Assembly (NCBI GenBank): GCA_026387175.1
Contig: JAPLME010000003.1
Span: 41,178-105,177 of the forward strand
Reading direction: 5' to 3'
Length of the DNA: 64,000 nucleotides
Origin: Candidatus Omnitrophota bacterium
GTDB lineage: Bacteria; Omnitrophota; Gorgyraeia; 2-01-FULL-45-10
The notes below the pieces were generated by a model that worked only from the letters and a program-made list of their open reading frames with translations, was not told the origin of the DNA and did not search any database. Below, in pieces: positions 7,349 through 11,610 of this stretch (within the stretch, counting starts at the first letter, position 1; every line of letters starts with the position of its first letter). Both the position numbers and the translations under genes were made by a program.

Positions 7349-7387
7349 TTATATGCCCCTTTCTTTCCTGAACCCTGACTTATCCAC

Positions 7388-7419
7388 ATTGTAGCTGACG
7401 TTTAAACGTCAGCTACAAT
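7388..7419. repeat. 32-bp perfect palindrome ATTGTAGCTGACGTTTAAACGTCAGCTACAAT overlapping the RT stop codon; probable terminator or protein-binding hairpin
   Basis: Exact reverse-complement symmetry. A related 32-bp palindrome with the same GTTTAAAC core is at 50631-50662. Confidence 0.8.
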
Positions 7420-8500
7420 CATGGTATCCAGTAATATATCCTTGAGCGAACTCTCGAGCTTTTTATGTACCAGATCCTTAAACAGCCTATGCCGCAAGCC
7501 GCCTGTACTGGCGTGCTTGCTGTGCGCCACCCAACAGCGGACGGAATCGCGGATCTCCTTCTCATTCATTTCGCCGTTTTCAAAGAGATGAGTAAATTTC
7601 CCGAGCCTTTTTCTGAAGCGCCTGACATTATCAGATGTAAGGCGCCTATAATCCTTATATATCCTGAACCCTAAGAACTTGATCCCTTTCTCGGTATTGT
7701 AAATCTGGGATTTTCCTTCATGCATCTGAAGCGCTAATCTCTCCTTTAAAAAATCCCTTATCTTACCTTTAACTTCAATAAGCGCTTTCTTATCATTGCC
7801 AAAGATCAAAAAATCATCCATATATCTTATGTAATGGCGAACCCTTAATTGAAACTTGACAAAATAATCCAACTCATTTAAGTAAAGGTTTGCGAGGAAC
7901 TGGCTAGTCAGGTTGCCTATAGGCAAACCTTTTACCATAGCTTCTGTGTTACCCCCCCCCCCCGGCATTTTCCGCTATCTGCCTCGCTGAATCGATTATC
8001 CCATTGATAAGCCGCAGTAGAGGCTCATCCGTAATTCTTTTGGCGAGCATACTTTTAAGTATACCGCGGTCAATCGAAGGGAAAAATTTCTTCACATCCG
8101 CGTGAAGACAGAACCTGTTCGACTTTAAAAACCTCTGGGCTCTGTCCAGGGCCTTATGCGACCCCTTATCCTTCCTGCAGGCGTATGAATCGTAAATAAA
8201 AGTCCTGTCAATGAACGGCTCGATAACGTCATGCACGGCATGATGGACTACCCTGTCCCTGAAAGGCGCGGCGGCGATCTTGCGCTCCTTCGGGTCGTAT
8301 ACGTTAAAGACACGGTACTTCCCGTGCCTGTAAGTCTTATCCGTCAATTCCCTGTGCAGTTTCTCGATCTCCTCTTCAAGAAGGAAGTTAAAATCCGCTA
8401 CCGAGTCCCTGTATCGCCGGGACCTCGCCGCCATATAGGCGGAACGATAGAGATTTTCTTTGGAAACTATCTGGGAATACAGGCCGGTTAATTTCTTCAT
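7402..8500 (-). CDS. DGR reverse transcriptase, split into two ORFs (7949-8500 and 7402-7968) by a 1-nt frameshift in a G12 homopolymer
   Basis: RT motifs FFPSID (motif 2), LPIGNLTSQ (the DGR-specific [I/L]GxxxSQ motif 4) and YMDDFLIFG (motif 5). Deleting one G from the 12-G run (plus-strand C 7952-7963) fuses both ORFs in frame (...ENAGGGGNTEAMVKGLPIGN...). Confidence 0.85.
7952..7963. repeat. C12/G12 homopolymer tract inside the RT coding sequence, at the frameshift site
   Basis: Counted directly: 12 consecutive C on the plus strand. Confidence 0.9.
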
Positions 8501-8532: not shown

Positions 8533-8656
8533 AGAAGTCTTGGCACAGCGAATGCCGTTATTGTTGTTGCGATTAGCATTCGTGTTCGCCGCGTTGTTAC
8601 GGTCCGATACACGAGCGTTGGAACTGTCGTTGTTCCAATTGCCGCCGCGGTAGCCT
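8533..8656 (-). repeat. DGR template repeat (TR), about 124 bp, in the intergenic region just upstream of the RT start
   Basis: About 85% identical to the 3' end of the target gene (9269-9392). Every mismatch is a plus-strand T here, which is an A in coding sense. The coding sense is AAC/AAT-rich (CGC AAC AAC AAT AAC...). Confidence 0.9.
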
Positions 8657-8862: not shown

Positions 8863-9201
8863 TCAAAGAGCGGACGATTTTAACCAGCCGCCGACCATCT
8901 TCCCTACCTCTATGGACGATTGGCAGAAAAAATCATAAGCATGTATATTGACGTATTTCATATCTTTGGCTATACGCATCATAAAACGTAAGGCATCTAA
9001 CTTTAAATTTACTTTTATCAATATCTCTCTTTTATTTTTTGAATAAACAGCTTCGATCAACATCTCCAGTATATCCAGAAGGATCGTTTCGATCCTGTCC
9101 GCCAGTAAAAACCTCTGGTCCTTCGGAAAGTTCGCGATCTTGGGCAGCATCCAGAGGATCAACCGGTAATGCTTCTCGACTACGGGAGTTATTTTCTTCA
9201 T
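8863..9201 (-). CDS. avd: Avd-like accessory variability determinant (four-helix-bundle family, related to 23S rRNA intervening-sequence proteins)
   Basis: 112 aa; KHYRLILWMLPKIANFPKDQRFLLADRIETILLDI...EVGKMVGGWLKS resembles bAvd/TIGR02436. Positioned between the target gene and the TR. Confidence 0.7.
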   Translation of the reverse strand: MKKITPVVEKHYRLILWMLPKIANFPKDQRFLLADRIETILLDILEMLIEAVYSKNKREILIKVNLKLDALRFMMRIAKDMKYVNIHAYDFFCQSSIEVGKMVGGWLKSSAL

Positions 9202-9232: not shown

Positions 9233-9262
9233 CAAAAATTCAAAAACCCAAAGAGCTACAAA

Positions 9263-10870
9263 CTAAGGGGAAGTCCTGGCACAGCGAATGCCGACATAGT
9301 AGTAGCGACCAGCATCCGTGTACGCCGCGTAGATACGGTCCGATACACGAGCGTAGGAACTGCCGGTGCTCCAACCGCCGCCGCGGTAGCCTGAGCCGGT
9401 CGCGTTAGTTCCCGGCCAGTCGGTATTAGTTGTGCTTAAACTGCCGTCGCCGTGACTTCCGATAAATAACCTGCCGGTACTATTGCCTACGGTAACCGGC
9501 CTCTCCCATAAATTCCCTGAAAGCTCCATTATTCCGTAATAGGAACCGCCGGAGGCATATCGGCTTGAGGAACTGGTCGCGGCAAATCCTGAGCGCATAG
9601 GACCTGATACAGTACCGTTGTAGGAGCAATTAGCGTTGTTAGTAGCAGTTTCATTATTCGCGCCGGGATTTGTGGGCCCGGTAGGACCAGCGGTGGGAGC
9701 GGTTGGCCCCCAGGCGTATTCATTGGCTATCGGGTTCATCAGCCCTATAGACGCCTTTTCAAACTCAAGCTCTGTAAATGGCCGGAGTCCCGCCCAATCA
9801 GCATAAGCACATAAGTCGGGCCAGCTTACGTAGTTACAGGCTATCCATTCGCCGTCAGTGGATTCGTTCGGTGTGCCATTATTGTTGTAATCACAGTAAA
9901 ACGTTATTGGGGTAGTGGCTGGAATAGCGGCATCACATCGTATTCCACTACGATAATTAGAAGCGGAAGCGATATTAGCGGCAACACTGGTATTTGCCAT
10001 AACATATATATTGGTTACGGATGTTGTGCCCGAAGCCAGGGTTGTCCCGTTACCAGCCCTTTGGTTCTGCTGGGCACGGTTTAATGTATTCAGAAAATCC
10101 CGGTATTGGCCCTGGTTAACTTCATATTTCATCATGTAGAAACCGTTATAACCTTTGGGGAAAGCGGCAGGTATTGGGCCAGCCTGATCGCCGCCATAAG
10201 TATTTGAATTCGGATAATAGAGATTCCCGGTTGCTGTGCCCACAATAATAGAGTCTTCAGAGGATATCTTGTAAGGGCTGGTGGTGTTGGGATAGCTATA
10301 GAAAGCGTTTGTCTCAGTACCGCCTGAACCTACATAGAACGAACCCGTCGGCACATAGACCATTTCTATCGCCATAACTTTAACCGAGATAGAAGCCGAA
10401 GGAGAGACTCCATCTGTGGCGTAATCCCAGTATACGACTTGGTTGGTCCCGGGCCTGCAGAAAGCGCCTTTTTGATCGGCGCTTATTCCGGTACCGCTTT
10501 GGGCGTTATAGCTACTTACTGTCCCCCCTGAAATTAATGTGGCATGGCTCCAGGCTGTATCGGTACCGGCATTCGCGGCGTCGAAGTACTTCACGAATAC
10601 CCAGGCCCGGTCGAAGAAAGTCTGGCCGTTATTGTCTACGGAAGTGAAAGAATTGTCCCAGACAACGTCGAACTTTACGCCTATCGTACCGTTCGGCTGG
10701 CCTGCGGCTTTATATAAGGAGACATTACTTACGATTATATTATTAGCGTAAGCCTGGGAGGTGAATATTGAATAATGGAAAGCGGAGAGTGCTACTAATA
10801 AGAAGAGGACGCGAAACTTAGAGAGAGAGAGAGAGAGAGAGGAAAGGCTACGGGCAAAACGTTTCAACAT
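9263..10870 (-). CDS. DGR variable target protein: secreted, with an FGE-sulfatase / C-type-lectin-fold C-terminal domain carrying the VR
   Basis: Signal peptide MLKRFARSLSSLSLSLSKFRVLFLLVALSAFHYSIFTSQAYA. The FGE-like region runs YEVNQGQYRDFLN...WPDLCAYADWAGLRPFTELEFEKA...GNLWE. The C-terminus ...GRYYYVGIRCARTSP is encoded by the VR. Confidence 0.85.
   Translation of the reverse strand: MLKRFARSLSSLSLSLSKFRVLFLLVALSAFHYSIFTSQAYANNIIVSNVSLYKAAGQPNGTIGVKFDVVWDNSFTSVDNNGQTFFDRAWVFVKYFDAANAGTDTAWSHATLISGGTVSSYNAQSGTGISADQKGAFCRPGTNQVVYWDYATDGVSPSASISVKVMAIEMVYVPTGSFYVGSGGTETNAFYSYPNTTSPYKISSEDSIIVGTATGNLYYPNSNTYGGDQAGPIPAAFPKGYNGFYMMKYEVNQGQYRDFLNTLNRAQQNQRAGNGTTLASGTTSVTNIYVMANTSVAANIASASNYRSGIRCDAAIPATTPITFYCDYNNNGTPNESTDGEWIACNYVSWPDLCAYADWAGLRPFTELEFEKASIGLMNPIANEYAWGPTAPTAGPTGPTNPGANNETATNNANCSYNGTVSGPMRSGFAATSSSSRYASGGSYYGIMELSGNLWERPVTVGNSTGRLFIGSHGDGSLSTTNTDWPGTNATGSGYRGGGWSTGSSYARVSDRIYAAYTDAGRYYYVGIRCARTSP
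9269..9392 (-). repeat. DGR variable repeat (VR) at the 3' end of the target gene
   Basis: Aligned to TR 8533-8656. About 18 substitutions are all at TR-adenine positions, falling in codon positions 1 and 2 of TR AAC/AAT codons (e.g. TR CGC AAC AAC AAT AAC versus VR CGC TAC TAC TAT GTC). The 3' ends are identical (IMH-like, GGCATTCGCTGTGCCAGGACT versus ...CCAAGACT). Confidence 0.9.
10820..10841. repeat. (AG)11/(TC)11 dinucleotide microsatellite inside the signal-peptide codons (SLSLSLS) of the DGR target gene
   Basis: Counted directly; 22 nt of perfect AG repeats. Confidence 0.9.
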
Positions 10871-11036: not shown

Positions 11037-11318
11037 TCATGCCTGCTTTAATAGCCTGCGTATTTCATCGTGATTACCATATGCGATGAATTCTATAAGG
11101 CCCTTCTGTTTTTTAATCAAAATACGCCTATTTGAGGCGGCATCTATCTCGAAATAATCATCCTTACCCGCCATCTTTCTTACTCGTAAATCGGCAAATA
11201 TCATATCCTTGTTGTAATAATTGAATAGCTCGCGGATCTTTTCATCGATCCTGGATTTTTCAGAATGAGGAAGCTTCTTGTATACACGTTCAAAAGAAGG
11301 CTTGATAATAATCTTCAT
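11037..11318 (-). CDS. Type II toxin of the RelE/ParE superfamily (mRNA interferase-like)
   Basis: 93 aa; N-terminal KKLPHSEKSRIDEKIRELF and C-terminal IAYGNHDEI patterns of RelE/ParE. Lies downstream of a small DNA-binding partner. Confidence 0.75.
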   Translation of the reverse strand: MKIIIKPSFERVYKKLPHSEKSRIDEKIRELFNYYNKDMIFADLRVRKMAGKDDYFEIDAASNRRILIKKQKGLIEFIAYGNHDEIRRLLKQA

Positions 11319-11322
11319 GCAT

Positions 11323-11610
11323 TTATGATGCCTTATGAAGATGTCTTATAGCCGCATCAGCGCTGTCAAACGCCTTTCCTTTCGCGGAGGCAAGCTTTTC
11401 GATTTTCTTCCATTCCTGCGGTGTATAAGGGTTATCCTCTTTGATTGTTGTGGTCACTCTTAATAACATAAAACCACCTGAAGCCGCTTTAAAGGCTATT
11501 TCGGATCCTTCTTTAAGGCCGAGCAAAGCCCTCACGGCTCTTGGAATGGTAGTCTGACCTTTTGAGGTAATATGCGACATGTAATATCTGCCCTTATTAA
11601 GTGTTTTCAT
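11323..11610 (-). CDS. AbrB/MazE/SpoVT-family antitoxin (swapped-hairpin DNA-binding domain)
   Basis: SKGQTTIPRAVRALLGLKEGSEIAF is an AbrB-type motif. The gene is 4 bp upstream of the toxin gene. Confidence 0.7.
   Translation of the reverse strand: MKTLNKGRYYMSHITSKGQTTIPRAVRALLGLKEGSEIAFKAASGGFMLLRVTTTIKEDNPYTPQEWKKIEKLASAKGKAFDSADAAIRHLHKAS

Follow-up and report, generated by a model that had tools for sequence, protein, structure and literature searches.

Diversity-generating retroelements (DGRs) and genes gated by homopolymers are each known. The DGR of Bordetella phage BPP-1 is built from the reverse transcriptase (RT) bRT, the accessory variability determinant Avd, a template repeat (TR) and a variable repeat (VR). 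In homopolymeric contingency loci, such as the poly-G/C tracts of Campylobacter jejuni, Neisseria and Haemophilus and the reversibly frameshifted glpK gene of Mycobacterium tuberculosis, the length of a coding G or C run sets the reading frame, and slipped-strand phase variation is an established behaviour of bacterial G/C tracts of 9 to 14 bases. Here we consider a locus that shares features with both, found in a 64,000-nucleotide stretch of the Candidatus Omnitrophota contig JAPLME010000003.1 (positions 41,178 to 105,177; hereafter the window). On its minus strand the window carries a complete chromosomal DGR, consisting of a target gene with VR, a bAvd-like gene, TR and an RT gene, and the RT gene is interrupted at a run of 12 G (G12). 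Slippage in this tract is probably an on/off or leaky gate on the DGR mutator.

The cassette in the window resembles that of BPP-1 in being complete, in placing VR in a lectin fold, in the I/LGxxxSQ and YMDD motifs of its RT, in having TR/VR mismatches at adenines only and in the similarity of its RT to the Bordetella structure 8ub7; it is unlike BPP-1 in that a frameshift at a conserved homopolymer breaks its RT. With contingency loci it shares a tract that varies in length between lineages, that is flanked by open reading frames (ORFs) intact on both sides and that is far longer than composition predicts. Known contingency genes, however, mostly serve surface structures, restriction-modification or metabolism, whereas the gene here is the engine of targeted hypermutation. 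The closest conceptual parallel may be found in mismatch-repair-deficient tumours, where coding homopolymer switches in MSH6 and MSH3 tune mutability (PMC11250277). There too a frameshift-prone homopolymer lies in a mutation-rate gene and mutability toggles stochastically, although MSH6 and MSH3 act on mutation genome-wide through disabled repair and the switch in the window would toggle a site-specific diversifier. Searches of the literature on DGRs for phase variation, homopolymers, frameshifts, contingency loci and Omnitrophota yielded no paper that describes a reversible switch built into the RT of a DGR. Activation and deactivation of DGRs are modelled in a 2026 theory preprint, which mentions silencing by mutations that impair the RT, without a reversible mechanism. 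Gating of the RT by a conserved homopolymer would be new among DGRs.

The tract, which reads C12 on the plus strand and G12 in the coding sense, lies within a 20-nucleotide overlap between two minus-strand ORFs (Table 1). The N-terminal ORF ends in the tract with ...ENAGGGG-TAA, and the C-terminal ORF starts at an ATG 3 nucleotides upstream of the tract (ATG-CCG-GGG...). Deletion of one G yields a 365-amino-acid RT reading ...ENAGGGGNTEAMVKGLPIGN..., and addition of two G yields one of 366 amino acids. A preliminary description of this DNA had reported the split of the RT at a run of 12 G and its fusion into a protein of about 365 amino acids when one G is removed; its coordinates and sequence statements were all correct. 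Pfam RVT_1 aligns to residues 71-280 of the repaired protein (83 bits), a stretch that spans the junction, and the protein is similar to the solved Bordetella DGR RT 8ub7 (E = 9e-48). Motif 4 of DGR RTs (I/LGxxxSQ, here LPIGNLTSQ) and the YxDD motif (here RYMDD) are both encoded in the C-terminal ORF of this frameshifted gene. The second-longest G or C run in the 64 kb is 6, and run counts drop about 4-5 fold per extra base, so a run of 12 is not due to chance; like the tracts of contingency loci, this coding simple-sequence tract is longer than composition predicts.

A product that can arise only from G12 recurs in six assemblies, and G12 is thus the reproducible consensus of the strain. When the predicted products were compared across tract lengths, the 183-amino-acid N-terminal product was possible from G12 alone, since G9 gives 182 amino acids, G15 gives 184 and the remaining lengths give other tails or the fused protein. 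Exactly this product was found in the NCBI metagenome-assembled genome (MAG) and in five separate Logan run assemblies, among them ERR15302175, ERR15302182 and ERR15302198. Three Logan contigs that were retrieved (L003, L004 and L005) carry G12 and are 100% identical to the window over 985-1913 nucleotides. The eight products that G8-G11 and G13-G16 would give were all absent from a collection of about 15 billion proteins, and no full-length homolog of the repaired RT exceeds 82% identity to it, the closest ones being at 76-82%. Contig ends near the tract were set aside as evidence of length heterogeneity. L004 ends 6 nucleotides after the tract and L167 ends 7 nucleotides before it, positions unlike the branch points of a length polymorphism in a k=31 graph, so these ends are uninformative and more likely reflect low coverage.

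Orthologous DGR RTs, which the preliminary description had proposed to compare at this position, carry a tract at the same place across a clade, ranging from G9 to G14 and including an interrupted G5-A-G7. Searching with the N-terminal half alone brought up numerous relatives, about 180-225 amino acids long, that end in or just past poly-glycine and then continue in wrong-frame sequence (e.g. "GGGGVTQKLWQKVCL"). We scored the frame of relatives from fetched DNA as the distance between the anchors I/V-D-S-A and G-L-P-I-G modulo 3, which could be done for seven lineages: the window, L172, L177, L178, L174, L001 and L002/L086. Five of these seven are out of frame, two at +1 (the window with G12 and L177 with G13) and three at +2. 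The latter are L178 with G13, L172 with GGGGG-A-GGGGGGG and an RT about 90% identical to that of the window, and L174 with A9 followed by G14, to which we give less weight because its contig name is possibly of long-read style. The other two are in frame with G9 at the same position and are the two closest full-length relatives, namely L001/L006 from a JGI metagenome and L002 with L086 (another Omnitrophota MAG). Among the remaining sequences, L175/L176 have G11 in a frame that could not be scored, their contigs ending 45-69 nucleotides past the tract; L007, L008 and L009 have no tract and are in frame; and L173, in which G24 is followed by unrelated sequence at 2.3x coverage, was set aside as a poly-G chimera. 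In a neighbour-joining tree the tract-bearing RTs form one clade, with L007 placed as a loss and L008 and L009 as outgroups; by this tree, the common ancestor of a clade of Omnitrophota DGR RTs already had the tract. As at contingency loci, then, tract length differs among lineages, and in-frame and out-of-frame alleles are found of an otherwise intact gene. L066 (1-350) was also considered as a relative with a frameshift at this position, but it proved to be a truncated RT remnant with no connection to the tract: its homology starts only after motif 4, with AT-rich repetitive sequence before it, and it comes from the same metagenome as the intact L008.

Constraint on the two halves of the gene was estimated as the ratio of nonsynonymous to synonymous divergence (dN/dS) by the Nei-Gojobori method, separately upstream and downstream of the loop that holds the tract. 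Where both genes of a pair are out of frame, dN/dS is 0.04-0.17 in both halves, indistinguishable from the 0.08-0.19 of intact gene pairs. The N-terminal ORF of the window gives 0.07-0.12 against its relatives and the C-terminal ORF 0.08-0.13; for the window and L172, dS is 0.58 and 0.78 and dN/dS 0.08 and 0.12 in the upstream and downstream parts, respectively. By this measure both RT halves are under strong purifying selection. There is no second lesion in any of the out-of-frame RT genes, and TR/VR mismatches fall exclusively at TR adenines in L172 (15/15), L174 (18/18) and L175 (19/19, in a lineage whose frame is not scorable). Judged from these comparisons, the interrupted RT genes are not old pseudogenes. 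Moreover, dS between lineages ranges from about 0.6 to more than 2, with most pairs near or beyond synonymous saturation, and GGG makes up only 17-27% of glycine codons elsewhere in these RT genes and in the window. That the tract has been kept all-G despite synonymous saturation and minority usage of GGG points to its maintenance at the nucleotide level.

The position of the tract in the protein seems suited to changes in length. The tract is preceded by the conserved IIDSA helix and followed by motif 4 (GLPIGNLTSQ); the segment that holds it ranges from 0 to more than 150 amino acids across 120 homologs and is an insertion relative to bRT in 8ub7. In an AlphaFold2 model of the in-frame ortholog P0001 (mean predicted local distance difference test score, pLDDT, 89.6), the glycine run at residues 177-179 forms a coil between two helices, where confidence within the model is lowest (blocks 171-190, pLDDT 68-72). 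On this model, gain or loss of glycines in the loop should be tolerated.

The DGR of this strain has also been diversifying its target. All 18 of the 18 mismatches between TR and VR in the window are at TR adenines, with none elsewhere. The exact bAvd sequence occurs on nine Logan contigs, of which two extend into VR. One of them (L166, from SRR20698639) differs from the window at 12 positions and the other (L170, from ERR15302169) at 16, all of them at TR adenines within VR; their other 1,192 and 973 nucleotides, respectively, are identical to the window. The strain thus has three VR haplotypes in otherwise identical DNA, a pattern that marks mutagenic retrohoming within a very short time. 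In seven other runs the contigs stop at or inside VR: the start is at 9302, immediately 3' of a variable adenine, in four of them and at 9262 in three. Except for the 9262 boundary, these breaks fit heterogeneity of VR within samples. The three contigs that begin at 9262 (L167, L168 and L169, from three runs) start at the first base after the target-gene stop codon, about 30 nucleotides past the last VR site that varies between samples (9294). That position lies beyond the last variable site, so VR polymorphism alone does not explain the break point.

We propose that production of full-length RT depends on slippage in the tract, most likely through heritable phase variation, a reading to which we assign a probability of about 0.5. 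In this reading G12 is a real and heritable homopolymer, prone to slippage, in a surface loop that tolerates changes in length immediately before motif 4. It places the catalytic half out of frame, so that full-length RT would be made only when slippage restores the frame. Slipped-strand mispairing during DNA replication would leave G11 or G14 in a minority of cells, where the DGR would be ON and VR would be diversified; these cells could later return to OFF, although the reversibility of the switch, its adaptive value and the level at which the frame is restored are our inference. A targeted mutator would in this way come under the control of a contingency switch. The tract may also cause RNA polymerase or the ribosome to slip, which would contribute some RT constitutively at a low level; the routes do not exclude one another.

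Phase variation is well supported by the comparative data but not demonstrated, and several observations weigh against it. The out-of-frame fraction, 5 of 7, is what neutral drift in length would give (2/3), and there is therefore no sign of selection for the ON state. The interrupted tract of L172 looks like a locked, decaying copy. L175/L176 and L002/L086, each seen in two assemblies, show a single tract length apiece, and no other length has been assembled for the strain of the window, either in its assemblies or among the roughly 15 billion proteins; with a single length per lineage, any switching that takes place leaves the consensus of the population unchanged. The contigs with alternative VRs end before the tract, which lies 1.3-1.4 kb from VR, so that G12 and a new VR are not seen on one molecule. 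Length variation within a strain is the defining property of contingency loci, and none was observed in the assemblies of this uncultivated Omnitrophota host, all six of which have G12. The tract accordingly works like a contingency locus and is not filed as a proven member of the class. The phase-variable switch suggested in the preliminary description gains strong comparative support from the conservation of the tract, its variation in length, the constraint on both halves and the diversification of VR, although a second length within the strain was never assembled. Its corollary that a uniform tract of 12 C would indicate a dead RT is too strong, since VR diversification is ongoing.

Recoding, which the preliminary description left out, fits the data about as well as the switch, though we consider it rather unlikely overall. 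Here the gene would be permanently G12 and some full-length RT would be made in every cell, giving low constitutive DGR activity, either because RNA polymerase stutters on C12 to produce G11 or G14 mRNAs or because the ribosome slips (+1 at GGG-UAA-C), or both. The window has a G-rich, Shine-Dalgarno-like stretch ahead of the last GGG codon and a stop after it, an arrangement that we take to resemble the +1 site of prfB. Recoding would account for the presence of G12 in all assemblies of the strain while VR diversifies, and for purifying selection on both halves; all five lineages with at least 12 tract bases are out of frame, as expected if that is the working configuration. Recoding also has a precedent on a G run in the thymidine kinase of herpes simplex virus, where low-level compensatory frameshifting occurs (PMC5009743). 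In the G-string mutants of that gene and at the +1 frameshift of prfB, slippage on a G run or at a stop codon lets an out-of-frame gene produce a small amount of full-length protein; the window is similar in having its stop directly after the slippery codon and G-rich sequence upstream. Against recoding, bacterial RNA polymerase slippage is documented mainly for A/T runs. A study of transcriptional slippage tested only A/T runs (PMC6260861). Unlike the viral gene and prfB, the RT relatives do not conserve direction, stop or stimulatory structure. The correction needed is +1 in the window and L177 and -1 in L172, L174 and L178, and the stop adjacent to the tract is not conserved, the zero frame of L177 continuing for about 40 codons. 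A programmed ribosomal frameshift of fixed direction is therefore not conserved, and a conserved prfB-like +1 site is ruled out. When 45 nucleotides upstream and 70 nucleotides downstream of the tract were folded for the seven lineages, no shared or unusually stable RNA structure was found (z -2.1 to +0.9). Finally, recoding sits poorly with the two lineages that are plainly in frame with G9.

If slippage restores nothing, the tract may be a mere mutational hotspot at which the RT of the window and those of several relatives have just died independently and, in effect, irreversibly, the VR diversity between samples being older than the frameshift. We rate this as improbable, to much the same degree as recoding. 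It draws on the match between 5 of 7 and random drift, on G12 being the only length seen in the strain, on the A that breaks the tract of the out-of-frame L172, on the apparent disruption of L175/L176 right after the tract and on the remnant L066, which indicates that decay does happen in the family. Yet five independent and very recent losses would be needed, none with a second lesion and with dN/dS still 0.04-0.17 in the untranslated half; the three out-of-frame cassettes that could be checked have no TR/VR mismatches outside adenines; the tract has been kept through synonymous saturation even though one synonymous change would stabilise it; and VR haplotypes differ between samples with 100% identical flanks, with VR contig breaks in runs that bear G12. 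It is highly improbable that G12 is instead a miscalled G11 or G14, the homopolymer sequencing error that the preliminary description had offered as its other option. Long G runs are prone to error, L173 is a clear poly-G artefact at the same site, the name of the L174 contig is possibly of long-read style and several contigs end within a few bases of the tract. However, exactly G12 was recovered in six assemblies (the MAG and five Logan assemblies) from separate runs and two pipelines, the supposed error would need to go in opposite directions (+1 or -1) depending on the lineage, and L172 is out of frame with runs of just 5 and 7 G, which are not error-prone. In addition, the other large genes of the window that we examined are intact (including an 888-residue PolA, a 925-residue IleRS and a 968-residue protein), and no A/T run in the window is longer than 8. 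Least probable of all is a naturally split RT whose halves are translated separately and assemble non-covalently, with the break in a permissive loop. The loop does tolerate insertions of more than 150 amino acids, and the C frame of the window has ATG codons 13 and 3 codons before motif 4, but in L174, L177 and L178 there is no ATG, GTG or TTG in the C frame between the nearest upstream stop and motif 4. In these lineages the catalytic half could not initiate separately ahead of this essential motif, which rules out a two-polypeptide RT as a general mechanism, and two lineages encode a single chain.

The cassette has every feature of a DGR that was tested for (Table 1). An RT, a TR/VR pair with adenine-restricted differences, an Avd together with a lectin-fold target and VR polymorphism at adenines were all found. 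The Pfam match of the target gene is to FGE-sulfatase PF03781 (residues 242-532). MCX5677656.1 and MCX5677658.1 are both annotated on a contig of 125,773 nucleotides. In the 64 kb of the window, tblastn detected no second RT that might act in trans, and there are no further VRs for this TR. The neighbours that were examined are intact housekeeping genes (rho, glgA, polA, secDF, recJ, ileS, a penicillin-binding protein gene and mur genes). The window has recJ and polA, and among its ten largest ORFs there were no mismatch-repair genes, a result that has no bearing on the genome as a whole. Adjoining the DGR, at 11037-11610, is a pair of genes encoding a 95-amino-acid protein with MazE/PrlF antitoxin matches, of which only that to MazE exceeds the Pfam cutoff (28.6 versus 24.7 bits), and a 93-amino-acid protein with no Pfam match; the pair is probably a toxin-antitoxin module. 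A perfect 32-nucleotide palindrome, ATTGTAGCTGACGTTT/AAACGTCAGCTACAAT, at 7386-7417 covers the last RT codons and the stop, with no T-run after it, and the Logan contig L003 terminates inside it.

Table 1. Coordinates of the DGR components and of the homopolymer in the window.
Feature	Position	Strand	Details
RT C-terminal ORF	7402..7968	-	188 aa, +1 frame; LPIGNLTSQ, catalytic YMDD and C-terminal region
RT N-terminal ORF	7949..8500	-	183 aa, NCBI MCX5677656.1; part of the enzyme upstream of motif 4
G12 homopolymer	7952..7963	-	one base over the in-frame length; G11 or G14 in frame
Template repeat (TR)	8534..8656	-	123 nt, 37 adenines
Accessory variability determinant, bAvd-like four-helix bundle	8863..9201	-	112 aa; Pfam PF22296, 70.6 bits
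DGR target gene	9263..10870	-	535 aa, MCX5677658.1; C-terminal FGE-sulfatase/C-type-lectin-like domain carries VR
Variable repeat (VR), 3' end of target gene	9270..9392	-	18 mismatches to TR

Some of the related loci have features of their own. In L175 (4534-4613, MAG GCA_041643055.1) and L176 (1118-1173, SRR23936502), the sequence that follows G11 has no similarity to RTs; either an insertion or repeat directly adjoins the tract there, or the loop may carry a long insert. The in-frame G9 ortholog L086 has ATT at 2481-2490, where its relatives have their ATG start, and gene callers began the gene 73 codons downstream; it may use a rare start codon or a nearby TTG. Although the RT of L172 is about 90% identical to that of the window, its target protein (L172 1-1206) is only about 55% identical to the product of the window's target gene, and the avd-TR-RT cassette of this lineage seems to have been re-paired with a different target gene. 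P0123, a homolog of the target with 87% identity, has no locus on record and does not belong to the L172 lineage.

Long G runs were also seen near other DGRs. In an unrelated DGR lineage, whose RT is 42% identical, a 30-nucleotide element CCCACCCTTCAAATC-G(n)-CGAAGCA lies about 48 nucleotides upstream of an avd-like ORF, with n = 9, 10 and 8 in three JGI metagenome samples (Ga0172366, Ga0172363 and Ga0172365; L020 2271-2279 and 500-509, L021 664-673, L022 692-699). A second copy of the element, with G10, is found at the 5' end of an upstream ORF of 414 amino acids. This poly-G, polymorphic in length, thus sits in a probable promoter or 5' untranslated region of another DGR operon, and it hints that homopolymer control of DGRs may be more general. 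Two further MAGs, one archaeal and one from Christensenella, have runs of G12, G9 and G11 a few kilobases upstream of their DGR RTs (L095 540-551 and 665-673; L140 219-229).

Our analysis bears on how the activity of DGRs is controlled, and a hypermutable homopolymer in the RT gene would be one mechanism. If this is true, control would be cheap, heritable, reversible and free of any sensor, and targeted diversifiers would form a new class of genes among contingency loci. There is also a consequence for the census of these elements, in that surveys demanding an intact RT ORF will leave this clade out or score it as inactive; in the window, the PGAP annotation covers just one half of the RT gene, and active DGRs may thus be under-counted. 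More tentatively than for the dependence of RT on slippage itself, we envisage a clade of Omnitrophota DGRs with a conserved and selected contingency tract in the RT, in which targeted hypermutation would itself be switched stochastically, most cells would be OFF and a small ON fraction would supply receptor variants.

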